Counted from the first letter of the stretch, positions 2,469 to 60,268 are shown. The stretch: 64,000 bases of DNA from Escherichia phage UPEC01 (MW233709); one strand, 5' to 3'. Notes: generated by a model from the sequence alone, not told the origin. Made by a program: numbers and translations.

Positions 2469-5183
2469 ATGCAAGAATTTTATTTAACTATCGAACAAAT
2501 CGGTGACAACCTACTCGAACGATATATTGACAAGAATGGTCATGAACGTGTTCGTGAAATCCCTTATGCTCCATGCTTGTTTATGCACGCCCGCGAAGAC
2601 CAAGCTGCAAAGTATACAGACATCTATAATAAAGGTTGTGTGAAAAAAGAATTCGATTCCATGCGTGATGCATCCCAGTGGATGAAGCGAATGAATGACA
2701 TGGGTCTCGAAGCTATGGGTATGGACGACTTTAAACTCGCATACTTGTCCGACCGTTACCCACACGAAATCAAATATGATTCAAGTAAAATCCGTGTTGC
2801 TAACTTCGATATCGAGGTGACATCTCCTGATGGGTTCCCTGAACCGTCTGAAGCACGTCACCCTATTGACGCCCTGACGCACTATGATTCGGTAGACGAT
2901 AAATTCTATGTCTTTGACCTTTTGGGCTCACCATACGCCACTGTGGAGCAATGGTCTATTGATATTGCTGCTAAGCTGCAGGAAGACGGTGGTGATGAAG
3001 TCCCGGAAGAAATCCTGGAAAAAATTGTTTATATGGCTTTCGATTCAGAAGAAGAAATGCTCCAGCAGTATTTGGTATTCTGGAACGAGAAAACTCCGGT
3101 TATGTTAACTGGTTGGAACATCGAGAAGTTTGATATTCCATATATCTACAACCGCCTTAAAAATGTATTTGGTGAAGCTACAGCAAAACGTCTGAGCCCA
3201 CATCGTCGTACAAAAGTTAAGGTCATTAACAACGGCTTTGGCGAAGAACAAGAAATCATTCAGATTCTGGGTATCTCTGTTCTGGATTATCTGGACCTGT
3301 ATAAAAAGTTCAGCTTCACAAACCAACCGTCTTATTCGTTGGATTATGTTGCGGAATCTGAACTGGGTGTTGGTAAACTCCCGTATGATGGCCCGATTTC
3401 TAAACTGCGCGAATCAAATCACCAGCGGTATATTTCTTATAACATCATCGACGTTTATCGTGTTGTGCAGATTGACCGTAAGCGACAGTTTATTAACCTG
3501 AGTCAGTCAATGGGTTATTACGCAAAAATGCAGATTCAGTCTGTATTCAGCCCAATCAAAACTTGGGATGCGATTATCTTTAACAGCTTGAAGACTCAAA
3601 ACAAAGTTATTCCGGAAACCAAATCGCATGTTCGCCAATCGTTCCCTGGTGCATTTGTTAAGGAACCTATTCCGAACGCATACAAATATGTAATGAGCTG
3701 TGACTTAACATCTCTGTATCCGAGCATCATCCGACAGATTAACATCAGTCCAGAAACGATTGCCGGGTCATTTGCGCCAGCCCAGATGTATGAATACATC
3801 GCAGGAACTGCTGACCGTCCATCTGATACATTTAGTTGTGCTCCAAATGGTATGATGTATTTTAAAGATGTTGCGGGTATTATTCCGACAGAAGTCACCA
3901 AGGTGTTTAATCAGCGTAAAGAGCACAAAGGCTATATGCTTGCGGCTCAACGTAATGGTGAACTGATTAAGGAAGCTCTGCGTAATCCAGGAACTGGCAC
4001 AACCGAACCAGAAGTTGATTATCGTCATGACTTTGATGACAATATGAAAACGACCCTGCATGGTCTGAATCAAACAGTCCTAAATGGTATGCTGTACAAA
4101 GCGCAGATGGAAGAAGTTGCAGGCATGACCGCACAGATTAACCGTAAACTGCTTATCAACAGTTGTTATGGCGCTCTGGGTAATATCTGGTTCCGTTACT
4201 TTGACCTGCGAAATGCAACCGCGATTACATCTTTCGGACAACTTGCACTGCAGTGGATTGAGCGTAAAGTTAACGAATACTTCGATAGTGTTTGTGGTAC
4301 AAGCGGTGAAACTTATGTGTTCTATGGCGATACTGACTCCATTTATATCCAGTGCGATAACCTGATTAAAAAGGTTGGTGGCGAATCTAAATTCCGCGAT
4401 ACAAACCACCTGGTTGACTTCATGGACAAGTTTGCGAAAGACCGTCTGGAACCGGCAATCGATAAAGCTTTCCGTGAGCTGGCTGAATACATGAACAACA
4501 AACAGCACCTTATGTTTATGGACCGTGAGGCGATTGCATGTCCTCCGCTGGGTTCGAAGGGTGTGGGTGGATTCTGGACGGCGAAGAAGCGTTATGCGTT
4601 GAACGTGTACGATATGGAAGGCACACGTTATGCTGTTCCAAAATTGAAAATCATGGGTCTGGAAACTCAAAAGTCGAGTACTCCAAAGGCATGTCAGAAA
4701 GCTCTGAAAGAATGCATCCGCCGTATGCTGCAAGAAGGTGAAGAATCTCTGCAGACATACTTCAAGGAATTCAATAAGGAATTTAATGAGCTTAACTACA
4801 TGACCATCGCAGGGGTATCATCGGTTAACAACATCCAGAAATATAATGAAGGTGGTTTCCCTGGATTTAAGTGCCCGGCTCATATCAAAGGTGTGCTTGC
4901 ATATATGCGTGCAACTAAAGGTCTGAAGACTGTTCCGCAAATCATGGAAGGGGAAAAGGTGTATGTACTTCCTCTTAAAGTCGGCAACCCATTTGGTGAA
5001 ACCGTGATTGCATGGCCATCAGGGATTGAACTCCCGATTGAAATTCGTGACCAAGTCTTGCAGTGGATGGACTACAACACACTGTTCCAGAAGACTTTTG
5101 TCAAACCGTTAACAGGTTTCTCTGAAGCTGCAAAGGTTGATTACGAAAAGAAAGCAACTCTTTTTGATATGTTTGACTTTTAA
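2469..5183 (+). CDS. 43: DNA polymerase gp43 (family B)
   Basis: 904 aa; exonuclease and polymerase motifs incl. YGDTDS, KKRYA, SLYPSII. Confidence 0.97.
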   Translation: MQEFYLTIEQIGDNLLERYIDKNGHERVREIPYAPCLFMHAREDQAAKYTDIYNKGCVKKEFDSMRDASQWMKRMNDMGLEAMGMDDFKLAYLSDRYPHEIKYDSSKIRVANFDIEVTSPDGFPEPSEARHPIDALTHYDSVDDKFYVFDLLGSPYATVEQWSIDIAAKLQEDGGDEVPEEILEKIVYMAFDSEEEMLQQYLVFWNEKTPVMLTGWNIEKFDIPYIYNRLKNVFGEATAKRLSPHRRTKVKVINNGFGEEQEIIQILGISVLDYLDLYKKFSFTNQPSYSLDYVAESELGVGKLPYDGPISKLRESNHQRYISYNIIDVYRVVQIDRKRQFINLSQSMGYYAKMQIQSVFSPIKTWDAIIFNSLKTQNKVIPETKSHVRQSFPGAFVKEPIPNAYKYVMSCDLTSLYPSIIRQINISPETIAGSFAPAQMYEYIAGTADRPSDTFSCAPNGMMYFKDVAGIIPTEVTKVFNQRKEHKGYMLAAQRNGELIKEALRNPGTGTTEPEVDYRHDFDDNMKTTLHGLNQTVLNGMLYKAQMEEVAGMTAQINRKLLINSCYGALGNIWFRYFDLRNATAITSFGQLALQWIERKVNEYFDSVCGTSGETYVFYGDTDSIYIQCDNLIKKVGGESKFRDTNHLVDFMDKFAKDRLEPAIDKAFRELAEYMNNKQHLMFMDREAIACPPLGSKGVGGFWTAKKRYALNVYDMEGTRYAVPKLKIMGLETQKSSTPKACQKALKECIRRMLQEGEESLQTYFKEFNKEFNELNYMTIAGVSSVNNIQKYNEGGFPGFKCPAHIKGVLAYMRATKGLKTVPQIMEGEKVYVLPLKVGNPFGETVIAWPSGIELPIEIRDQVLQWMDYNTLFQKTFVKPLTGFSEAAKVDYEKKATLFDMFDF

Positions 5184-7516: not shown

Positions 7517-7850
7517 TATCGATTTATCTGATTTAGATAATTTCGAGAAAGATGCGGAGGGAGCTAAGGCTCCTTCTGTACCTTACTACGAAAAAAGTTT
7601 GGAGATTATCCGGCAATCCATGGGAACCGTACGACAGGAAATTCTGTTATCACTCCCTGATGGGTCCAGTCACATTGTGTACGTAACCGGAATTAAAATT
7701 GAACCATCTGGAAAAGTTTCAGTTGATTTCGGCACCCCTTCTGAAGACCGCAAAGCGGAGCTTGCAGTGCATGTAGAAAAGTGTGTTACAATGCAAATAC
7801 AAGATGAAATTGATAAGATTAAAATGAAAAAGAGGTGGTGGAAGTGGTAG
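7506..7850 (+). CDS. 40: gp40-like protein (head vertex assembly chaperone position)
   Basis: 114 aa ORF between uvsX and 41 exactly as T4 gene 40; no sequence motif verified. Confidence 0.55.
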   Translation: MMNDIDLSDLDNFEKDAEGAKAPSVPYYEKSLEIIRQSMGTVRQEILLSLPDGSSHIVYVTGIKIEPSGKVSVDFGTPSEDRKAELAVHVEKCVTMQIQDEIDKIKMKKRWWKW

Positions 7851-9274
7851 AAACTATTTTATCCCAGCTACTCTTTAACAAGGAATATTTTGTTAAAGTC
7901 TGGCCATATCTGAATAACACATATTTTGAAAAGGGTCCAGCAAAGACCCTTTTTAATACGATTAACGAACACGTAAAAGAATATCAAGCGGTACCAACTA
8001 AGACTGCACTTGATATCGCGCTCGACAGTTCTGACCTTTCTGAAGTCGAATATGAAGGCACAAAGAAACTCTTAGGAGTCCTGGCCGATACTCCAGAAGA
8101 CCAGGAATGGTTGGTTAAAGAAACCGAGAAGTATGTACAGAAGTCTGCGATGTTCAATGCCACATCCAGGATTATCGAAATCCAGAGCAATGCCGAACTT
8201 CCGAAAGATAAACGTGATAAACGAATCCCGGATATTGGTGCTATCCCTGACATCATGCGCGATGCATTGTCTATCTGTTTTGACTCTGCTCTGGGCCATG
8301 ACTGGTTAAACGATTACGAAGCTCGATTCCAGACTTATCTGAACAAATCGAAGAAGGTTCCGTTCCGTATTAACATCCTGAATAAAATCACGAAGGGCGG
8401 GGTTGAGTACGGTACAGAGAACGTTTTACTGGCCGGGACGAACGTCGGCAAATCCCTTGGACTTTGTTCGCTGGCGGCTGACTATCTTCAGACTGGTCAT
8501 AATGTGCTTTATATAAGCATGGAAATGGCTGAAGAAGTATGTGCCAAACGTATTGATGCCAACTTGCTGGATGTGTCTCTGGATGATATTGATGAAGGTC
8601 ATGTGTCATGGGCGGAATACAAAAGTAAGATGGAAAAATGGCGTGCAGCCGGGACCCTTGGGACTCTGAAGATAAAACAATATCCAACTGGCGGTGCTCA
8701 TGCGGATACCTTCCGTGCATTGCTGAATGAATACAAACTGAAGCAAGGGTTTGTGCCGGATGTGATTATTGTTGACTACCTGGCAATCTGTGCAAGCTCA
8801 AGACTGAAAACGTTTACCGAAAACAGTTACGGCCTGATTAAGATGGTTGCAGAAGAACTTCGTGGTCTGGCGGTCGAGAAAAATGTGGTCCTGTGGACTG
8901 CAGCGCAGACAACCAGGGGTGCGAACGTTGCAGCTGAGATTGATATGGCTGACATCGCTGAATCTTTTGGTATTGCTCACACGGCCGACTTTATGTTGGG
9001 TGTTGTTGAGACCGAAGAATTCGCTCAAATGGGACTACAGTTAATCAAACAGCTTAAGTCTCGTTACGGCGATAAGAACTACTATAATAAATTCAAGATG
9101 GGTGTTAAGAAAGGTAATCAGCGCTGGTACGAGGTTGATGATGATTCAGCTCCTAAACAAGGCCCTACGGTTAAAGAAGCCACTGGTGAGATGAATCGCC
9201 AGGCTGAAATGAATAGACAAACCAGGGTCAACAGGAGCGACCTGGACGACCTTGCTGCTCAAATGAAATTCTAA
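7835..9274 (+). CDS. 41: replicative helicase gp41 (DnaB-like)
   Basis: 479 aa, Walker A GTNVGKS, similarity to T4 gp41 N-terminus; start codon is GTG-type, exact start uncertain (7835/7838/7844). Confidence 0.93.
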   Translation: MVEVVETILSQLLFNKEYFVKVWPYLNNTYFEKGPAKTLFNTINEHVKEYQAVPTKTALDIALDSSDLSEVEYEGTKKLLGVLADTPEDQEWLVKETEKYVQKSAMFNATSRIIEIQSNAELPKDKRDKRIPDIGAIPDIMRDALSICFDSALGHDWLNDYEARFQTYLNKSKKVPFRINILNKITKGGVEYGTENVLLAGTNVGKSLGLCSLAADYLQTGHNVLYISMEMAEEVCAKRIDANLLDVSLDDIDEGHVSWAEYKSKMEKWRAAGTLGTLKIKQYPTGGAHADTFRALLNEYKLKQGFVPDVIIVDYLAICASSRLKTFTENSYGLIKMVAEELRGLAVEKNVVLWTAAQTTRGANVAAEIDMADIAESFGIAHTADFMLGVVETEEFAQMGLQLIKQLKSRYGDKNYYNKFKMGVKKGNQRWYEVDDDSAPKQGPTVKEATGEMNRQAEMNRQTRVNRSDLDDLAAQMKF

Positions 9275-9295
9275 AGACCTTCGGGTCTTTTTCAT
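9275..9295 (+). terminator. intrinsic terminator hairpin
   Basis: aagaccttcgggtctttttc after gene 41. Confidence 0.6.
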
Positions 9296-9300
9296 TTAGA

Positions 9301-9334
9301 GGTTTACAACACCATAAAAAGGGTGTACTATTAT
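9301..9334 (+). promoter_or_regulatory. early-type promoter
   Basis: GGTTTACAAC ... TATTAT followed by conserved leader CATCAACTACTGATGAGGATAATAAAATG. Confidence 0.5.
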
Positions 9335-9362
9335 CCCATCAACTACTGATGAGGATAATAAA

Positions 9363-9611
9363 ATGTTATTAGTTAATGTGCAGTACCAGTTCAAATCTGA
9401 AGAAGCTCTCCAAAAGTATGCTGATATTTGTGAGCATAATAAAAGAACAGCTGCCATTGTTGGTCTGAAGCCTTTTAAAATTTTGGATTGCTCCTTGAAC
9501 AGAGCAAGACGCTGGTGTAGTGTTGCCTGTCATGCTTCAGTTGAAGGGAATGATTATTTTTTCATTACTTTCAATGCACAAGATTTTCATTTAATTAATG
9601 AATTAAAATAG
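9363..9611 (+). CDS. hypothetical protein (82 aa)
   Basis: ORF with GAGGA RBS in conserved leader. Confidence 0.55.
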   Translation: MLLVNVQYQFKSEEALQKYADICEHNKRTAAIVGLKPFKILDCSLNRARRWCSVACHASVEGNDYFFITFNAQDFHLINELK

Positions 9612-9640
9612 TGTACAAGCCCCTTGTCTTAGGACATAAT
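9611..9640 (+). promoter_or_regulatory. early-type promoter
   Basis: GTGTACAA-N16-CATAAT followed by conserved leader GATTCCATACTGAGTTAC. Confidence 0.5.
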
Positions 9641-9689
9641 GATTCCATACTGAGTTACACAATAAACCAACTGTTAAAAGGAAAACCAT

Positions 9690-9992
9690 ATGTTTAATCA
9701 AACCGATATGAACCGTTACTATTTTGGTCAGTTCGCTCGCCGTGATGAAAACTGTGCTGCTCTTATCGCATCAGGCATTCAAACTGGTAAATTAATAAAG
9801 CTCAAAAGCGATGTTCAACCTTCATCTGTTCGCAGCTCTCTTCGTGAGTATCTGCTTGCAGGCGGGGCAGTATATGTTATCGCTGAACCTTTTGTTAACG
9901 TGTGCGACGATTACACAATTAGTGTGACTGTTATGCACCCAACTACTGGGAAAATTCGTTGTCTGACTATGCACAACTATGAGTTGGCGTAA
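9690..9992 (+). CDS. hypothetical protein (100 aa)
   Basis: ORF with AGGAAAA RBS. Confidence 0.55.
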   Translation: MFNQTDMNRYYFGQFARRDENCAALIASGIQTGKLIKLKSDVQPSSVRSSLREYLLAGGAVYVIAEPFVNVCDDYTISVTVMHPTTGKIRCLTMHNYELA

Positions 9993-10000
9993 GTGAATAA

Positions 10001-10021
10001 AGGGGCTTACAGCCCCTTTTT
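10001..10021 (+). terminator. intrinsic terminator hairpin
   Basis: aggggcttacagcccctttt. Confidence 0.6.
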
Positions 10022-10060
10022 CTTATGTTATAATGACTCTATCAACTACTGGAGAATAAA

Positions 10061-10378
10061 ATGAAAACCATTGATTGCAAGGCAGAATACAAAGTTTATT
10101 ATCATGGGTCAAGTTCTAATGCTGGAATCCAAAATATGCTTTGTCCTCCTGATGCAACTGGTGTTCTGTCAGAAGTTGGGCGTAAGAAAAATTTAGGGCG
10201 TGTGTTTTTTACTGAAGATATTGGTTTGGCGCGTATCTATGCAGGAAGAGCAGCTCGCTCATATGGAGGAGAACCCCGTCTTTATCGTGTGATTGCACCT
10301 GTTGACGTGGTTTGTTTAAATGATACTAAAGGCGCAACAGTTTATCACGCTGACTGGGCCTTCTGTGAGGAAATCTAA
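10061..10378 (+). CDS. hypothetical protein with HGS-like motif (candidate mini ADP-ribosyltransferase)
   Basis: 105 aa; KVYYHGSSSNAG resembles the H-G-S/T NAD-binding motif of H-Y-E class ARTs; assignment is speculative. Confidence 0.5.
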   Translation: MKTIDCKAEYKVYYHGSSSNAGIQNMLCPPDATGVLSEVGRKKNLGRVFFTEDIGLARIYAGRAARSYGGEPRLYRVIAPVDVVCLNDTKGATVYHADWAFCEEI

Positions 10379-10582
10379 ATGTATAAATTAGAGAACGTAG
10401 TATTTATTGGTTGGTTTGAAAATGGTAATATGTTTACCAAAGAAACCGCGCTGGATGTCAGTGACAAAAATATGATTGAATGGGTTACAGTGCAGTATGC
10501 GGAAGTGAATAATGCGCTGGTTAAAGCCTTTGTTAATGACAATAAAGTTTTTGAATATGATGCCCGCATTGAGGAAATCTAA
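10379..10582 (+). CDS. dmd: Dmd-like small protein (candidate antitoxin against RnlA/LsoA-type toxins)
   Basis: 67 aa, position between 41 and 61 as T4 dmd; GWF...MFTKE...YAEVN..ALVKAF recalled as Dmd-like; not database verified. Confidence 0.45.
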   Translation: MYKLENVVFIGWFENGNMFTKETALDVSDKNMIEWVTVQYAEVNNALVKAFVNDNKVFEYDARIEEI

Positions 10583-10924
10583 ATGACTTTTAATCCAGAA
10601 GACCGCGTAAAAGTAACAATCAAAGTGAGTGCCGTTGGCGTTCCATCTTTTGAGCGCTCAAGTATGTTCCATCCCGCAGGTATTCACTGGTATGTTCAGA
10701 AGACTGCTGATAACTATAATGCGCTGGTTGAAGCTTTTGTTGATGACAAGCTAATTCATAAAGTAGACATGCGTAAGGGTACTGCATTGCGTAATCTGAT
10801 TTTGACCGTTGAAGCGCAACTGGTAAATGAAGAAATCTGCCTTACTGATATTGAAGCAGCTCTTCATATTGCACGTGCTGAATATTACAAATTGACTGGT
10901 TTTTCAGTTGAAGGTGAAAAATAA
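10583..10924 (+). CDS. hypothetical protein, tandem paralog of the Dmd-like protein
   Basis: 113 aa; shares YNALVEAFVDDK/NNALVKAFVNDNK segment with preceding ORF. Confidence 0.55.
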   Translation: MTFNPEDRVKVTIKVSAVGVPSFERSSMFHPAGIHWYVQKTADNYNALVEAFVDDKLIHKVDMRKGTALRNLILTVEAQLVNEEICLTDIEAALHIARAEYYKLTGFSVEGEK

Positions 10925-10925
10925 G

Positions 10926-10956
10926 TGTACATCAAAGGGGTAATGCAGTATATTAT
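10926..10956 (+). promoter_or_regulatory. early-type promoter
   Basis: GTGTACA ... TATATTAT then leader CCTATCAACTACTGAGGAG. Confidence 0.45.
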
Positions 10957-10982
10957 CCCTATCAACTACTGAGGAGATTGAA

Positions 10983-11276
10983 ATGAAAAAGTTATTAATC
11001 GCAGCAATTCTTACCGTAGCATCATGTGGTACAGCCCCAGTTACTGCTGGGCTTGATAAAGACCTTTGTGAGTGGTCCATGACTGCGGACCAGACTGATG
11101 TTGAACACCAGATTTATGCTGACATCATGAACATTACTAAACGTGACCACCCAGATATGGTTAAAGAAGTATCTGACCAACTGGCTTCTGGTGACGTTAT
11201 GCAGTATAACTATGTTCTGTATTGCGATGCTTCATTTGACAACAGCAAGATTGTTCAATGGGTTACAGGTGAATAA
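10983..11276 (+). CDS. secreted/lipoprotein, spackle (Sp)-like by position and size
   Basis: 97 aa with signal peptide MKKLLIAAILTVASCG; T4 sp sits between dmd and 61 and is 97 aa. Confidence 0.45.
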   Translation: MKKLLIAAILTVASCGTAPVTAGLDKDLCEWSMTADQTDVEHQIYADIMNITKRDHPDMVKEVSDQLASGDVMQYNYVLYCDASFDNSKIVQWVTGE

Positions 11277-11277
11277 A

Positions 11278-11718
11278 ATGATTAACAGAAATTTAGTTAT
11301 CAAAAAACTTCGTTGTAAAAATCAAAATGCACAAGCATACAGGATGTTTTGGAGCGACGAACCCATTCAATACCTGGGTTATTTTCTTGTTGATAGTGAT
11401 AATAGAATTACGTTTGCTCATAAACTTCTTAACAAAGAATTAAACCATTGGCAAGAACTTATTGCGGTCAAGTCTAAATTATTTTCGCGCAATACAATGC
11501 ACCAATTGGTTTATTTTTTCGCTGACGGTATTCCTGACAAGGTTGAGTTTGATGGGTTTGAATTTAAAGACATCACCCCTGATAATGAATTGAATGACAG
11601 TATTGTTAATATGGGTATCCCGGGTAAGTACATCAAAAACAGTCTTTTGAAACTTCTGGAAACCCCTGTATATTCAGTTGACGACCAGATTTTTAATGCC
11701 TTCATGAAGCGAGATTAG
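11278..11718 (+). CDS. hypothetical protein (146 aa)
   Basis: Start ATG 11278 (MINRNLVIKK) chosen over track start 11143, which overlaps previous gene in another frame. Confidence 0.5.
   Translation: MINRNLVIKKLRCKNQNAQAYRMFWSDEPIQYLGYFLVDSDNRITFAHKLLNKELNHWQELIAVKSKLFSRNTMHQLVYFFADGIPDKVEFDGFEFKDITPDNELNDSIVNMGIPGKYIKNSLLKLLETPVYSVDDQIFNAFMKRD
11677..11713 (+). repeat. 37-bp direct repeat copy 1 (encodes VDDQIFNAFMKR tail)
   Basis: gttgacgaccagatttttaatgccttcatgaagcgag, identical to 12032-12068. Confidence 0.9.
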
Positions 11719-11719
11719 T

Positions 11720-12073
11720 ATGAGTTATTATAATTTTCTGAATTTTGAACTGGCGAGCAATAATGATGGTAATGCTCATTATGAATTTCGTGAGCCACGG
11801 TTTAATCAAGCGATTGGTTATATTATCGTCAAAGATGATGTTATCATAAAGGCTCGCTCATTTATGGTAATGAATGGACCTTATGAAGATACTCGCGGCT
11901 ATCCATTTGATAAAAAGAATGTGCGCGATTGTGCAGCATGGATAACCGGAAACCCCGAAATTGGGGTCATGATATCTACTGAAGCGAATGACATTCTGGA
12001 AGGGGCTTGGGTCAAAGCTCAAGAACAGTCTGTTGACGACCAGATTTTTAATGCCTTCATGAAGCGAGGTTAA
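11720..12073 (+). CDS. hypothetical protein (117 aa)
   Basis: ORF; C-terminal 13 aa identical to that of the preceding ORF. Confidence 0.5.
   Translation: MSYYNFLNFELASNNDGNAHYEFREPRFNQAIGYIIVKDDVIIKARSFMVMNGPYEDTRGYPFDKKNVRDCAAWITGNPEIGVMISTEANDILEGAWVKAQEQSVDDQIFNAFMKRG
12032..12068 (+). repeat. 37-bp direct repeat copy 2
   Basis: identical to 11677-11713. Confidence 0.9.
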
Positions 12074-12074
12074 T

Positions 12075-12296
12075 ATGTTTGTTTTGACCCAATTCTCTAA
12101 AGCAATATATAGTTACTCTTGCCAGTGGGAAGTCTTTATTGATACGCCGTCTCCCAAGTATGGAGTTTTTGGACGAGTAACTACTCAAGCTTATGTTGCG
12201 CGACCGACTAAACGTCAGATTCGTAAACTTAAAAAGGCACATCGTCAACTGATTAAAAGAAGGGAACAATATGAGTGCAATGTGTACGGGCTCTAA
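12075..12296 (+). CDS. hypothetical protein (73 aa), basic C-terminus
   Basis: ORF with lysine/arginine-rich tail (RQIRKLKKAHRQLIKRR). Confidence 0.45.
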   Translation: MFVLTQFSKAIYSYSCQWEVFIDTPSPKYGVFGRVTTQAYVARPTKRQIRKLKKAHRQLIKRREQYECNVYGL

Positions 12297-12462
12297 GATT
12301 TCCGTCTTCCAGATTTTTGAAGAATATGAAATCGTGTCGCAAGACCAAGAAGCAATCCATGCTATCGCTGATGATGGGGTTACCTGGATTATTCCGTTGT
12401 ATCATGAAGACACTTATGAAGTGACTGATGCAAATGGTGATAAAGCTATCTTCGTTGTATAA
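12271..12462 (+). CDS. hypothetical protein (63 aa)
   Basis: ORF overlapping previous by 26 nt. Confidence 0.4.
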   Translation: MSAMCTGSKISVFQIFEEYEIVSQDQEAIHAIADDGVTWIIPLYHEDTYEVTDANGDKAIFVV

Positions 12463-12465
12463 ATA
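12458..12465 (+). promoter_or_regulatory. late promoter TATAAATA
   Basis: Exact T4 late -10 consensus 18 nt upstream of ORF 12483. Confidence 0.5.
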
Positions 12466-12482
12466 GCGGAAAGGGGGGTGTT

Positions 12483-12650
12483 ATGAAAACATTCAAAGAT
12501 TTTATCAACGAAGATATGGTTGCTGGTGATGCAGGTGGAAACCCAACTAATATCGCAACAGGTACCACTTCCGGGGCAGTTGTCAATAAAGGCCCTGAAC
12601 AAATCCCATCAAAAAAGCGTAAGAACAAAGACGATAAACCTACAGTATAA
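12483..12650 (+). CDS. hypothetical protein (55 aa)
   Basis: ORF with strong RBS AAGGGGGG. Confidence 0.4.
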   Translation: MKTFKDFINEDMVAGDAGGNPTNIATGTTSGAVVNKGPEQIPSKKRKNKDDKPTV

Positions 12651-12682
12651 TGGTCCTCCGGGACCATTGAAATGAGGAAACT

Positions 12683-13711
12683 ATGTCATATATTGATAGA
12701 GAATTTGCAGTCAGAGCTTTATCGTATCAACCACGTTATAGAGAAGTCACCGGGAGCACATTTAAAGCAAACTGTCGTTGCAAGGTTTGTGGGGACTCCC
12801 AGAAAGATTCACACAAGGCTCGATTCTGGGCGTATACTAATCCGGCCGATGGCGCGGTTTACGTGAAATGTTTTAACTGTGACTACTCCACGCATATAAG
12901 CAAATACATAAAAGAGTTTGAGCCGGATTTACACCGGGAATATATGGTTGAGAAGTATAAGGAGAATGCCTTTGGGCGACAACGCAATGAAGTCATTGAA
13001 ACTCCGAAAGAACCAGAAAAAACTCCGGTTATCGAACAGCTTGCTTTTTGTGAAAGACTCGATACTTTACCAGAAGCACATCCGATAATTAAGTATGTAA
13101 AAAGTCGATGTATTCCAAGCAATGTTTGGAATCGACTATGGTTTACAAACCAATGGCCCACATTAGTTAACTCCGTTAATCCTGGGACGTATAAGAATGA
13201 AACGAATGAACCACGCTTGGTTATTCCTATCTTCAACGGCAAAAAAGAAATCGAATCTTTCCAAGGACGAGCTCTTCGCAAAGATGCACCACAAAAATAT
13301 ATCACAATCAAAGCTCACCCAGAAGCTTCCAAAGTCTATGGCGTAGACAAGATTGATGAGCGTAAACGCGTATGGGTAATGGAAGGTCCGATTGATAGTT
13401 TGTTTATCCCTAACAGCATTGCGATAACTGGTGGAACATTGTCATTGGAAGCCGTTCCTTATCCAGAAACCAGAGTATGGGTAATGGACAACGAACCAAG
13501 ACATCCGGATACGATTAAACGTATGAAGAAGCTCGTTGAAGCTGGCGAAGCTGTTATGTTCTGGGACAATGCACCATGGCATACGAAAGACATAAATGAG
13601 ATGGTTAAATCAGAAGGAGCAACCCCTGAACAAATCGAATCATATATGGCTGATAACGTTGCCCAAGGATTGATGGCGAGAATGCGACTTTCGAAGTACG
13701 CAAAAGTTTAG
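12683..13711 (+). CDS. 61: DNA primase gp61
   Basis: 342 aa, zinc-binding CxxC...CxNC N-terminus, TOPRIM region, strong similarity to T4 gp61 (PIIKYVK.RCIP, DNEPRHPDTIKRM). Confidence 0.93.
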   Translation: MSYIDREFAVRALSYQPRYREVTGSTFKANCRCKVCGDSQKDSHKARFWAYTNPADGAVYVKCFNCDYSTHISKYIKEFEPDLHREYMVEKYKENAFGRQRNEVIETPKEPEKTPVIEQLAFCERLDTLPEAHPIIKYVKSRCIPSNVWNRLWFTNQWPTLVNSVNPGTYKNETNEPRLVIPIFNGKKEIESFQGRALRKDAPQKYITIKAHPEASKVYGVDKIDERKRVWVMEGPIDSLFIPNSIAITGGTLSLEAVPYPETRVWVMDNEPRHPDTIKRMKKLVEAGEAVMFWDNAPWHTKDINEMVKSEGATPEQIESYMADNVAQGLMARMRLSKYAKV

Positions 13712-14114: not shown

Positions 14115-14198
14115 ACATCCTCCTTTCTTGTATTTATGCTTTAAACCAATACGATATAATTAACATACAAACAACATGAATTGATAAGGAAAAATATA

Positions 14199-15277: not shown

Positions 15278-15301
15278 AGGGAACCTTCGGGTTCCCTTTT
15301 T
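15278..15301 (+). terminator. intrinsic terminator hairpin
   Basis: agggaaccttcgggttcccttttt after soc. Confidence 0.65.
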
Positions 15302-15324
15302 GCTTTTAATAGAAGCGGTATAAT
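15298..15324 (+). promoter_or_regulatory. candidate middle promoter (MotA-box-like TTGCTTTTA + TATAAT)
   Basis: TGCTT 13 nt upstream of TATAAT, immediately after terminator. Confidence 0.4.
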
Positions 15325-15349
15325 TATTTCAATTACAGAGGAGAATACT

Positions 15350-17737: not shown

Positions 17738-17781
17738 GACACGTTAAGATGCTCCTATCAACTACTGATGAGGATAATAAA

Positions 17782-20904: not shown

Positions 20905-21142
20905 AGTACATAAAGAAGATTTAGATAATCTTATCTACGGTATTCAGGACGCGGTTGAATTTTTCGAAGATAATTCGACTATCGTCGTGCAGGGTAATTA
21001 CGTTTTACTGGAACTGAATCTTATTCGGAAACGTATGGCCGCGATTGAATATTTTAACAATGAAGAGCCAGGGATTTTTATCTCTGATTATGTTGCTGGT
21101 GAAATTCAGAAATTAAAAGAGATGTGCGATGGTTGCTGGTGA
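20897..21142 (+). CDS. hypothetical protein (81 aa); C-terminus altered by 40-bp tandem duplication
   Basis: Start ATG 20897 overlapping dda stop; alternative start 20861. Confidence 0.4.
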   Translation: MYKVHKEDLDNLIYGIQDAVEFFEDNSTIVVQGNYVLLELNLIRKRMAAIEYFNNEEPGIFISDYVAGEIQKLKEMCDGCW

Positions 21143-21172
21143 AATTCAGAAATTAAAAGAGATGTGTGATGA
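21093..21172 (+). repeat. 40-bp tandem duplication (2 copies, 1 mismatch)
   Basis: gttgctggtgaaattcagaaattaaaagagatgtg(c/t)gatg x2 at the ORF 20897 / dexA junction. Confidence 0.9.
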
Positions 21173-24594: not shown

Positions 24595-24993
24595 ATGTTT
24601 AAAATTGGAAAGAGTTATTGCATTAAAGATTTAGATGGCTTCCTTAAACATGTCGGTATGCCTGGTAGCATTTTGAACCAACAAGGAACCTCTATCATTG
24701 ATTTGGTTACTACCAAAGAGTTTTCAGTCACTAAGATGGAAGCAAATGTTGTTACGGAATTTAGTACTATAGATGGAACTGGATTTTCTTTCCATAGTCG
24801 TAATGGAACCGGTCTTATTTTTGGTGATGAATTTAAATATTTTGAAGAAGTCCCGGAATGTGATTCTGAAATAACCGAACAGGAATCAAAAGAGGATATC
24901 GTTGTTACCGGCGGCGATGTTATTATTACGGTTAAAACTGAAGCCGGCCGTCTACAAGCTATTAAAATGTTAGAGCAGCTTCGATTCAAATAA
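24595..24993 (+). CDS. hypothetical protein (132 aa)
   Basis: Start ATG 24595 with GAGGA RBS; track start 24418 overlaps previous gene. Confidence 0.5.
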   Translation: MFKIGKSYCIKDLDGFLKHVGMPGSILNQQGTSIIDLVTTKEFSVTKMEANVVTEFSTIDGTGFSFHSRNGTGLIFGDEFKYFEEVPECDSEITEQESKEDIVVTGGDVIITVKTEAGRLQAIKMLEQLRFK

Positions 24994-25012
24994 AAGGCCT
25001 TCGGGCCTTTTT
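24993..25012 (+). terminator. intrinsic terminator hairpin
   Basis: aaaggccttcgggcctttttg. Confidence 0.65.
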
Positions 25013-25036
25013 GCTTTAAAATATGTGACTTATAAT
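25010..25036 (+). promoter_or_regulatory. candidate middle promoter (MotA box TTTGCTTTA + TATAAT) for gene 39
   Basis: TGCTT 14 nt upstream of TATAAT; T4 gene 39 is MotA-dependent. Confidence 0.5.
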
Positions 25037-27088: not shown

Positions 27089-27112
27089 AAAAGGACCTTC
27101 GGGTCCTTTTTT
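27089..27112 (+). terminator. intrinsic terminator hairpin
   Basis: aaaaggaccttcgggtcctttttt. Confidence 0.65.
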
Positions 27113-27288
27113 ATTATGTACAAGCCATAAAAATTGCGTTAAGATGTCCTTGAGGTGAAAATATGATTATGTCTGACGGAAGTTTAGTTAATCTACATTT
27201 TTTATTATGTACAAGCCATAAAAATTGCGTTAAGATGTCCTTGAGGTGAAAATATGATTATGTCTGACGGAAGTTTAGTTAATCTACA
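27107..27288 (+). repeat. perfect 91-bp tandem duplication (2 copies) covering promoter, RBS and first 12 codons
   Basis: 27107-27197 identical to 27198-27288. Confidence 0.95.
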
Positions 27289-27538
27289 GAATGTTGCTCG
27301 TTGTATTATGGAAGCAGGCCTGAGGAAGGTGCAGGAGCTCCCAGATAGCGACAGGAAGCGAAGTTACTTGTTGGCTGTAAGAGCATCAGCCATGAGCATT
27401 AAGGCTGGCCAGAAGGTTCCTGAGGAGCGAATTGAAGCACTCCTTGCATTGATATACCATGGCCAAGAACATAAAGCTACCATGCGTAGTATGAGAAAAA
27501 TATTACAGGAGATTGGAAATGACGAACTTCAAAGTTAA
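27254..27538 (+). CDS. hypothetical protein (94 aa)
   Basis: Starts in second copy of the 91-bp duplication; first copy gives a truncated 28-aa ORF (27163-27249). Confidence 0.5.
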   Translation: MIMSDGSLVNLQNVARCIMEAGLRKVQELPDSDRKRSYLLAVRASAMSIKAGQKVPEERIEALLALIYHGQEHKATMRSMRKILQEIGNDELQS

Positions 27539-32354: not shown

Positions 32355-32384
32355 GTGTACATCAGTATGGAGTCTATGTATAAT
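32355..32384 (+). promoter_or_regulatory. early-type promoter
   Basis: AAAAAGTAGTGTACA ... TATAAT then leader GATTCCATACTGAGTTAC. Confidence 0.5.
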
Positions 32385-32418
32385 GATTCCATACTGAGTT
32401 ACCAAACTGGAGAATAAA

Positions 32419-32574
32419 ATGAAACCTGCTCAATATGCAATGACTTTATACCTTGAAGTTAATGGCGATATTACTGAATTTTTTAAATTAATGCAACAGC
32501 GCGGAAAAAGTTTTGCAGTTACTGAGCGTCAATTTTACGCTTGCCGTAAAAATACATACAATCGTTATGCGTGA
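32419..32574 (+). CDS. hypothetical protein (51 aa)
   Basis: ORF with GGAGAATAAAATG leader. Confidence 0.35.
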   Translation: MKPAQYAMTLYLEVNGDITEFFKLMQQRGKSFAVTERQFYACRKNTYNRYA

Positions 32575-33330: not shown

Positions 33331-33572
33331 AACTTTTTAAAGACATTGCAGTTGGTGAAAAATTTGTCCTGGGTAATGGTCAACAACTGATTCGCATTTC
33401 GCCTTTAATGGATAACAGTGAGCGCCCTGTGCGTACTGAAAACTGTTTGGATTATCCTTTTTATCAGAAACGTTTTGCAATTGAAAATAATACTGAGTGC
33501 TTCACAGTTGATGAACTGATGGAATCATCAGAAGAAGTTGACTTGTGGGATGGCGCGGTAGATGTAGAATAG
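33327..33572 (+). CDS. hypothetical protein (81 aa)
   Basis: ATGA-coupled ORF. Confidence 0.45.
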   Translation: MKLFKDIAVGEKFVLGNGQQLIRISPLMDNSERPVRTENCLDYPFYQKRFAIENNTECFTVDELMESSEEVDLWDGAVDVE

Positions 33573-33601
33573 TGTACAAACTCATGGGAGCAGAGTATAA
33601 T
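33572..33601 (+). promoter_or_regulatory. early-type promoter
   Basis: GTGTACAA ... gggagcagagTATAATgttccc. Confidence 0.5.
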
Positions 33602-33639
33602 GTTCCCGTGGATAATAAAATTTAATTGAGGAAAATATT

Positions 33640-36569: not shown

Positions 36570-36599
36570 GTGTACAAACCCCTTGTCTTAGGACATAAT
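36570..36599 (+). promoter_or_regulatory. early-type promoter
   Basis: AAAAAAGTAGTGTACAA-N16-CATAAT then GATTCCATACTGAGTTAC. Confidence 0.5.
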
Positions 36600-51890: not shown

Positions 51891-52555
51891 TTACGATTCG
51901 CATGCCTCCAAATAACAACCGATATATAAATGGTAAATCAGTATACCAACTGTACTTATCCATCAAACAGCATTTTTCGGGTCGTTATGATATTATCAAA
52001 TATAACTGGACCATGCGAATCTCCGATAGTGCTTATCAAAAACGTCGCGATAAGTATTTTTTCGAAAAGCTTAGCGATAAGTACACTCTCAAAGAATTAA
52101 CGTTAATATTCATGTCAAACCTGGTTGCGAACCAGGATGCATGGATAGGCGATATAAGTGATGCCGATGCTCTGATATTTTATAGAGAATACATTGGTAG
52201 ACTTAAAAGAATTAGACAAGTATACGAAGATGATATAAAGAACATCTATTACTTCAGTAAGAAAGTCGAAGTCAAATCGCTCCAAGAGATTTTCGAGTAT
52301 AATACTAAAGTGAACACAAGTTATATTTTCAAACTTCTCCAATCGAATGTTATCTCATTTGAAACGTTTTGTTTGCTTGATTCATTTTTAGGTATTATAA
52401 ATAAACATGATGAACAGACTAACGACTTGGTTTGGGAAAAGTATTCAACCAAACTAAATGCCTATAAGAAAATCTTAAATATAGATTCTCTTGAAGCTCG
52501 TAAATTGTTCATCGAGACCGTTAAAAACTGTCAAATAACGCTTCAATCACTTTGA
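51887..52555 (+). CDS. 59: helicase loader gp59
   Basis: 222 aa; MITIRMPP..RYINGKSVY.LY..IKQH ... FMSNLVANQDAWIGDISDADAL as T4 gp59. Confidence 0.9.
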   Translation: MITIRMPPNNNRYINGKSVYQLYLSIKQHFSGRYDIIKYNWTMRISDSAYQKRRDKYFFEKLSDKYTLKELTLIFMSNLVANQDAWIGDISDADALIFYREYIGRLKRIRQVYEDDIKNIYYFSKKVEVKSLQEIFEYNTKVNTSYIFKLLQSNVISFETFCLLDSFLGIINKHDEQTNDLVWEKYSTKLNAYKKILNIDSLEARKLFIETVKNCQITLQSL

Positions 52556-52615
52556 AGTATAATTAATACGTAATCAAAACAACTGCTAAAAATCAAATAA
52601 TCTAAGGAAAATCAT

Positions 52616-60230: not shown

Positions 60231-60268
60231 TATAATTATGCTCATGGATGAGCTATTGAGGAAATAAA

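Follow-up and report, generated by a model that had tools for sequence, protein, structure and literature searches.

Early-promoter cassettes resembling PeSL elements in the 41-61 interval of Escherichia phage UPEC01

Promoter early stem-loop (PeSL) elements of T4-like phages consist of an early promoter with an associated stem-loop, followed by a Shine-Dalgarno sequence (SD) and an ATG, and they are repeated in hyperplastic regions (PMC2839356, PMC4122927). We have analyzed similar elements in Escherichia phage UPEC01 (MW233709), using a 64,000-nt stretch of its DNA (the window) and in particular positions 9275-12682 (the region), which fill the interval between genes 41 and 61. The best matches to the region are Escherichia phages TH41 (98.7%), PSD2001, 212, VR20 and SP18, all T4-like coliphages of the genus Gaprivervirus in the Tevenvirinae. 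The interval holds 11 small accessory open reading frames (ORFs), all on the + strand, and four early-promoter cassettes (units 1 to 4; Table 1). Judged by sequence criteria, these cassettes are PeSL-like and represent a known kind of feature, now in another T4-like genus; an earlier note made from the DNA sequence had proposed this match, and the units do fit the published description (PMC2839356, PMC4122927). The region is likely to be the Gaprivervirus 41-61 accessory block, equipped with standard early-promoter cassettes that are regulatory in the first place and are also used as portable homology.

The cassettes share several properties with the PeSLs of T4 and PST (Comeau, Arbiol and Krisch 2014, PMC4122927), namely a T4-type early promoter (TTTACW-N17-TAYWAT), an AT-rich upstream tract, a 3' SD and ATG, a stem-loop just upstream in some copies, a hyperplastic location, and proximity to indels between close relatives. 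They differ from them in that the -35 element is mostly GTGTACA, two transcribed leaders are strongly conserved, many stem-loops flank the -10 element instead of lying upstream, and breakpoints are not in excess over other gene junctions. The PeSLs of RB49 and phi1 (Arbiol et al. 2010, PMC2839356) likewise comprise tens of promoter/stem-loop copies, in which the stem-loop is located between the -35 and -10 or overlaps one of them, and include chimeric elements left by loss of an ORF between two copies. Their promoters, however, are near-perfect TTGACA/TATAAT with polyG/polyC stems, and experiments have demonstrated their promoter and terminator activities as well as mini-circles, whereas the present case is built from sequence. 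Among the four units, the stem-loop takes the form of an upstream hairpin in unit 1, a hairpin over the -35 in unit 3 and an inverted repeat over the -10 in unit 4, and it is lacking in unit 2; the promoter, the SD with ATG and the many copies are all present. Indels are associated with cassettes in this locus, including one chimeric cassette. Lambdoid morons (Hendrix et al. 2000, as discussed in PMC2839356) are also single accessory genes between conserved genes, with their own promoter and sometimes a terminator. Here, in contrast, the genes are co-oriented with their neighbors, the flanking regulatory repeats serve as homology, and most ORFs share a promoter.

The cassette motif is highly overrepresented in the window. 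GTGTACA-N16-17-YATAAT occurs 12 times (0.01 expected) and GTGTACAA occurs 11 times, all on the + strand, the latter with no copy on the - strand. Downstream of the -10, the leaders ATCAACTACTG and CCATACTGAGTTA have eight and five exact copies, respectively, again all on the + strand. If looser -35 and -10 variants are allowed, there are about 23 cassettes per 64 kb, all on the + strand and all in intervals between core genes. Both the repeated motif with its conserved leaders and the inter-core intervals in which the earlier note had placed it are thus borne out, the latter by mapping onto the annotated SP18 genome, which also assigned the ORF behind each cassette. About half of the cassettes stand before conserved, named early genes. 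The genes preceded by cassettes are imm, ORFs A, B and C, sp, modB, modA, srd, motB, ndd.4, ndd, an ORF upstream of motA, asiA, frd.2, frd.1, alc and two further ORFs without an SP18 counterpart.

Early promoters of T4 (the UP/-35/TGn/-10 class) have an A-rich tract at -40 to -44, GTTTAC at -36 to -31, a TATAAT-like -10 and a C-rich stretch at -3 to -1 (PMC2988021, PMC1524935). The motif fits this consensus at each of these elements and likewise precedes imm, modA/B, motB, ndd, asiA and alc; it differs in having G for T at -34 in most copies and a -10 that often begins with C (CATAAT). Since the same cassettes precede conserved T4 early genes, they appear to be ordinary early promoters and not labels of new cargo. 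Matches to the motif of MotA-dependent middle promoters (a TGCTTtA box 11-13 nt upstream of TAnnnT) are absent from 9275-12682 and occur elsewhere, including at 14137 and 25012.

All four cassettes of the region lie within its first 1.7 kb (9273-10982), and none of them matches the full consensus. Each has a 17-nt spacer by the hexamer convention and ends at its 3' side in GAGGA or GGAG followed by ATG. An A-rich upstream tract is found in units 2 and 4; a terminator T-run takes its place in unit 1, and the -35 of unit 3 is within a hairpin. A GC hairpin with a T-run occurs in units 1 and 3 only, and the TTCG loop in unit 1 only. Cassette 1 as a whole folds with z = -4.75, and the T4-type consensus with its C-rich -3 to -1 (PMC1524935) would place the start of its promoter at A9338. 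In unit 3, the -35-like CTTACA (10006) occupies the hairpin loop and 3' arm, and an N17 spacer separates it from a TG-extended TATAAT (10029-10034); this promoter has 10 of 12 consensus matches with the TG present, and the unit folds with z = -3.17. The inverted repeat of unit 4 is 10 bp long (10936-10960), and the leader of this unit has AACTACTGAGGAG in common with T4 sp. The earlier note had described the whole region as a series of hairpin-promoter-leader-ORF units. Four promoter cassettes are indeed there, but all are in 9273-10982, and two of them have no hairpin with a T-run. Nor does each small ORF have its own cassette: the 11 ORFs share four, and the seven ORFs of 10983-12650, which overlap at their stop and start codons or are separated by no more than about 20 nt, have none.

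The likely account of the region begins with rightward transcription as early mRNA. The four cassettes would be copies of a sigma-70 early promoter with an A-rich tract, a G(T/G)TTACA or GTGTACA -35, a 17-nt spacer, a (C/T)A(T/C)(A/T)AT -10 and a predicted start at the A of CC-A-T, followed by one of two conserved 5' leaders, a GGAG-type SD and ATG. Terminator hairpins after gene 41 and after ORF B would close the upstream units, and the seven genes from sp through 61.1 would be expressed as a single string, tightly packed and translationally coupled. The cassettes place 40-65 nt of near-identical sequence at about 23 sites in one orientation, and general homologous recombination of the phage would for this reason use them as portable homology too. 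The steps seen when sequences are compared are promoter-to-promoter indels, a chimeric promoter, cassette replacement before the same gene and ectopic conversion of a spacer. Other junction repeats, such as 4-17 nt SD-ATG microhomology and a 49-nt coding-end repeat, would serve about equally often. In this account, we infer the promoter and terminator activities, the +1 positions and the recombination enzymes involved.

Comparison with related phages reveals several events at cassettes. Three indels in the region span cassette to cassette: VR20 lacks 9298-9629, which is the promoter 1 -35 through the promoter 2 spacer; TH15 and EAWsc9 lack 9276-9998; and in TH54 a different 124-aa ORF (MNFSQAIVK...) replaces ORFs A and B between cassette 1 and the cassette 3 leader. 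In TH54, the terminator of gene 41 is immediately followed by an orphan early promoter, and then come a second promoter and the 124-aa ORF. The 41/C junction of JS98 corresponds to the first TH54 promoter up to GGCATGAT and to the third TH54 promoter from ATAGACC on. By this comparison of sequences, the JS98 41/C promoter is a chimera with its crossover inside the -10, an outcome of recombination predicted by the PeSL model (PMC2839356). The spacer of the gp274 promoter (36570-36599, upstream of the motA operon) has 16 of 17 positions in common with that of the ORF B cassette, which lies 27 kb away at 9611, and only 8-9 of 17 with its five orthologues; this pattern points to ectopic gene conversion over that distance. 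A pair of cassettes separated by 27 kb shares 94% identity across 65 nt, and the sequences on either side are unrelated. Different strains also have different cassettes before the same gene in the cases of C, frd.1 and srd. VR20, TH15 and TH54 lack a 43-nt segment (33563-33605) that contains the -35, spacer and -10 in front of the gp277 homologue, so whole promoters may be gained or lost without a gene.

Breakpoints are not confined to cassettes. The whole window was aligned with five Gaprivervirus genomes, which gave 75 clusters of indel or replacement endpoints with tail-fiber genes excluded. Gene junctions make up 12.9% of the sequence, and 58 of the 75 clusters fall within 15 nt of one. 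Endpoints are present at 9 of 20 cassette junctions and at 34 of 86 other junctions (odds ratio 1.25, Fisher p = 0.8). Junctions were taken from an interval-scheduling gene caller, and the statistics are unchanged relative to an earlier heuristic caller. The comparison of cassette content with related phages that the earlier note had suggested finds indels at cassettes but no excess over ordinary junctions. Because cassette junctions and other junctions are used alike, the mosaic would derive from many junction homologies together with selection for intact genes, and not from a dedicated vehicle. ORF-precise indels elsewhere in the window are bounded by 4-17 nt of SD-ATG homology. In the region, the deletion of ORF H in JS98 and VR26 runs exactly through the 49-nt repeat, of which copy 1 is the left endpoint. 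The C/dmd and dmd/E breaks are at stop/start junctions (10390; 10585-10586), and both carry GAGGAAATCTAAATG; in SP18 and RZ the break is within dmd, about 22 nt farther upstream.

Tandem duplications in the window and larger insertions in relatives were also observed. A perfect 91-nt tandem duplication (27107-27288) of promoter-like ATGTACAA...TAAGAT, an SD and the first 12 codons yields a 28-aa stub ORF (27163-27249) before the intact 94-aa ORF (27254-27538). Alignment of four relatives extends up to this unit and resumes only at the second copy, which suggests that the 91-nt unit is single-copy in them. A 40-nt tandem duplication (98%; 21092-21171) lies between a dexA.2-like ORF and dexA, which is intact from about 21166; the unit is single in phage 212, SP18 and TH15. 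Relatives carry insertions of 547-782 nt at 222, 3974-4095, 52525-52558 and 60239-60267. In SP18, segG is annotated between 59 and 32, near 52525, and these insertions are probably due to homing endonuclease genes, not cassettes.

There are six hairpins with a TTCG loop and a T tail on the + strand of the window, and none in 300 shuffles. The earlier note had also assigned them to the region, where only that of unit 1 is found. The UUCG terminators follow the long conserved genes 41, soc, 39, 52 and 32, and a sixth precedes gene 39. A promoter-like site lies within about 40 nt downstream of each, two of the six being of the MotA-box type. These six composites of terminator and promoter, mostly after long core genes, would mark entry to an accessory block and not each ORF. 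The GC stem, tetraloop and U-run expected of a UUCG-tetraloop intrinsic terminator are all present at 9273-9295, and a second hairpin, at 9999-10022, combines a TAC loop with a T-run. The hairpin before the gene 61 SD, which has a TCCG loop, was rejected as a terminator since it has no T-run. Outside the region, two UUCG terminators (15278-15325 and 24992-25036) stand directly before putative MotA-box middle promoters, TTTGCTTTTA...TATAAT before mrh.2 and TGCTTTA-N12-TATAAT before gene 39. This arrangement of terminator and middle promoter is the one known as 'PmSL' in Vibrio phage nt-1 (PMC4122927).

A second kind of structure involves the promoters and leaders themselves. Strong inverted repeats surround the -10 in 7 of 19 promoters, including a 13-bp repeat at 32355, and the T4 41/dmd promoter also has a 10-bp inverted repeat around its -10. 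Arms that flank the -10 pair better within a promoter than across promoters (permutation p < 5e-5). In the promoter at 32355-32401, the 13-bp repeat is formed by the spacer and the conserved CCATACTGA leader, and its loop contains the -10; the 51-aa ORF behind it (32419-32574) is missing in phage 212, SP18, VR20 and TH54 and present in TH15. The unit 1 leader hairpin has a predicted stability of -13.9 kcal/mol (z = -2.85), and the same fold is predicted in paralogous leaders at 17757, 21895 and 63064. Its 5' arm lies upstream of the predicted +1, so the hairpin would form only in read-through RNA. A scan of IMG/VR for extra copies of the leader returned mostly VR-type genomes already in the set and little independent covariation. 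The CUGAUGA within the leader was considered as a hammerhead and rejected for want of an Rfam match, and Rfam searches of the whole window at the gathering score and of the region at E <= 1 gave nothing credible.

Hairpins of the T4 e, soc, 49 and I-TevI genes reportedly hide the SD in read-through transcripts, a finding attributed to McPheeters et al. 1986. The unit 1-type leader hairpin is similar in that it is predicted to bury the SD with the putative start inside its 5' arm, an arrangement in which only self-initiated RNA would be open for translation, and it may therefore block translation of read-through transcripts only. The internal promoter of the T4 cases is late, whereas here it would be early. 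A tentative extension, which we regard as possible but rather doubtful, is that the cassettes are two-layer insulators that make each gene block autonomous and are kept alike by ectopic conversion (concerted evolution). One layer would be the inverted repeats around the -10, whose arms differ between copies and stay complementary. In the other, only RNA arriving from upstream would form the leader hairpin of the ATCAACTACTGATGAGGA type, so that the SD is hidden or read-through is attenuated, and RNA from the cassette's own promoter, without the 5' arm, would be translated.

In the strong form of the PeSL model, the cassettes are a dedicated shuffling vehicle that drives gene flux, with ORF and cassette excised together as mini-circles and reinserted at other cassettes. 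The three cassette-to-cassette events, the chimeric promoter of the predicted type (model in PMC2839356) and the spacer converted by a distant copy all fit this model, as does the presence in RB3 of a homologue of the goF-like ORF A (57% identical) in another slot of the same region, between 61.4 and sp. We nevertheless find it unlikely, given that cassette junctions are not in excess over other junctions, that half of the junction clusters in the locus are at cassette-less stop/start overlaps or the 49-nt coding repeat, and that both loci inspected for ORF A homologues (the window and RB3) have them nowhere but in the 41-61 interval. What survives of the earlier note's view of the cassettes as vehicles of gene shuffling is their coincidence with gain, loss and replacement in the locus, with the chimera and with the conversion; a preference for them over other junctions does not. 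The converse idea is that the repeats are purely regulatory, with their likeness imposed by RNA polymerase and the ribosome and with breakpoints falling at the sole viable places. Such a model accommodates the clustering of endpoints at all gene junctions alike, the placement of the same cassettes before conserved early genes and the extended consensus known for T4 early promoters (PMC2988021). It is nonetheless less probable again than a dedicated vehicle, because the spacer would lie outside the early-promoter consensus and yet that of gp274 is closer to a paralogue than to its orthologues, because two distant cassettes are nearly identical between unrelated flanks, and because the JS98 junction is a precise chimera.

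Very improbable is a site-specific system in which a phage protein recognizes GGGG...CCCC-type stem-loops and exchanges cassettes as integrons do, an idea raised as speculation in PMC2839356. Several cassettes do have G-run/C-run inverted repeats flanking the -10, with arms that pair better when matched. However, family searches found no integrase, recombinase or homing-endonuclease domain in the 11 ORFs, stem sequences differ between cassettes, and crossover points vary among the -35, spacer, -10, leader and SD-ATG. We favor cassettes that are regulatory first and double as homology, although several points weigh against this reading as well. The junction test involves five related genomes, heuristic gene calls and clusters that are phylogenetically non-independent, so a modest excess could escape it, and cassette junctions are longer than the others (median 75 nt vs 12 nt). 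Unit 2 has no terminator hairpin, and its fold is not above shuffles (z = 0.57). The JS98 hybrid is read across two genera, JS98 (Dhakavirus) and TH54 (Gaprivervirus), and the event may have been a deletion or an insertion. Promoter strength, start sites and termination are all deduced from consensus.

The T4 order in the same interval is 41, dmd, 61.4, sp, 61.2, 61.1, 61, and dmd, sp, the 61.4-like gene and 61.1 are common to T4 and the region. The backbone of the region is thus old. Variation within or between genera affects ORFs A, B, E, H and I. A search for foreign composition found ORF GC contents of 0.34-0.43 against a window mean of 0.406 +/- 0.039, which is ordinary for the phage and gives no sign of recent import from beyond the T4-like gene pool. 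With cassettes before conserved T4 early genes, ordinary composition and four genes shared with T4, the earlier note's suggestion that these ORFs are marked as recently acquired does not hold. Its suggestion of host-interaction cargo stands where the family is known, which is the case for Dmd, Spackle, the AdfA-like tail and the goF-like gene.

ORF A is missing in VR20, EAWsc9, TH15, MN01, VR26, JS98 and TH54, and ORF B in EAWsc9, TH15, TH54 and JS98. ORF C is kept across the compared Gaprivervirus and Dhakavirus genomes, with a divergent allele in VR26; a PDB sequence search with ORFs B and C found no relatives. The dmd start follows directly after the ORF C stop. ORF E is 34% identical to T4 Dmd (E = 1.5e-5) and gave only weak Dmd matches in the PDB search. 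Only some Gapriverviruses have it; SP18 and RZ lack it, and JS98, MN01 and VR26 have a replacement. This ORF could encode a variant antitoxin directed at another target. It adjoins dmd, with which it shares a 34-nt stretch of 91% identity. The C-terminal ~53 aa of ORF G resemble the C terminus of T4 gp61.2 (Pfam AdfA, anti-DarT factor; 36% over 63 aa, E = 0.004), and the last 14-16 aa of ORF H also match the AdfA tail. These adjacent, otherwise unrelated ORFs share their terminal 13-16 residues, SVDDQIFNAFMKR, which are the C-terminal tail of T4 gp61.2/AdfA. ORF H is missing in JS98 and VR26, and ORF I in EAWsc9 and MN01. A late-promoter-like TATAAATA at 12458-12465 overlaps the ORF J stop, 18 nt upstream of the 61.1 start; this motif occurs eight times in the window against 4.4 expected, which is not significant.

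Table 1. Features of the 41-61 interval of phage UPEC01, in window coordinates
Feature	Position	Strand	Description
Gene 41 (replicative helicase)	7835-9274		left flank of region
Unit 1 terminator-like hairpin after gene 41	9273-9295	+	AAAGACC-TTCG-GGTCTTT, then T-run
Unit 1 promoter (putative)	9302-9331	+	GTTTACA-N17-TACTAT; leader ATCAACTACTGATGAGGA
Unit 1 leader hairpin	9329-9360	+	UAUUAUCCCAUCA-ACUAC-UGAUG-A-GGAUAAUA, predicted to bury SD GAGGA
ORF A	9363-9611	+	82 aa, goF-like, phrog_2980
Unit 2 promoter (putative)	9605-9689, -35 at 9611	+	AAAATAGTGTACAA-N16-CATAAT (GTGTACA-N17-CATAAT), leader CCATACTGAGTTA, repeat family D1
ORF B	9690-9992	+	100 aa, phrog_17014, function unknown
Unit 3 composite terminator/promoter (putative)	9995-10060	+	hairpin AAAGGGGCT-TAC-AGCCCCTTT (9999-10022) and T-run; leader ATCAACTACTGGAG
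ORF C	10061-10378	+	105 aa, phrog_2110, function unknown
dmd	10379-10582	+	antitoxin vs RnlA/LsoA-type toxins; PF17587, 1e-20; 57% identity to T4 Dmd
ORF E	10583-10924	+	113 aa; N-terminal ~64 aa Dmd-like, with 50-aa C-terminal extension
Unit 4 promoter (putative)	10920-10982, -35 at 10925	+	AATAAGTGTACAT-N16-TATATT (GTGTACAT...TATATT; GTGTACA-N17-TATATT), leader ATCAACTACTGAGGAG
sp (spackle, periplasmic protein)	10983-11276	+	PF25676, 2.5e-43; 65% identity to T4 Sp
ORF G	11278-11718	+	146 aa, phrog_8539
49-nt direct repeat, copy 1	11674-11722	+	3' coding end of G, SD, stop/start overlap; family D11, 94% identity
ORF H	11720-12073	+	117 aa, phrog_4122; PF23813 match below cut-off
49-nt direct repeat, copy 2	12029-12077	+	3' end of H, including SD and next start
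ORF I	12075-12296	+	73 aa, DUF7279 (3e-20); T4 gp61.4 homologue, 39% identity
ORF J	12271-12462	+	63 aa, phrog_3249, function unknown
61.1 homologue	12483-12650	+	86% identity over 42 aa to T4 gp61.1
Hairpin before gene 61 SD	12648-12669	+	UAAUGGUCC-UCCG-GGACCAUUG; -15.3 kcal/mol, z = -3.53
Gene 61 (primase)	12683-13711		right flank of region

The locus gathers anti-defense and exclusion genes (dmd, a Dmd-like paralogue, AdfA-like tails and spackle) that differ among otherwise near-identical coliphages of the therapeutic type. Its cassettes extend the PeSL idea to another T4-like coliphage genus, with sequence evidence in the form of a chimeric promoter and ectopic conversion of a spacer. They also temper it, in that short junction repeats appear in this data set to be crossover points about as often as the cassettes are. 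If the two-layer insulator model is true, then ectopic conversion would preserve both plug-and-play regulation and the homology for shuffling.

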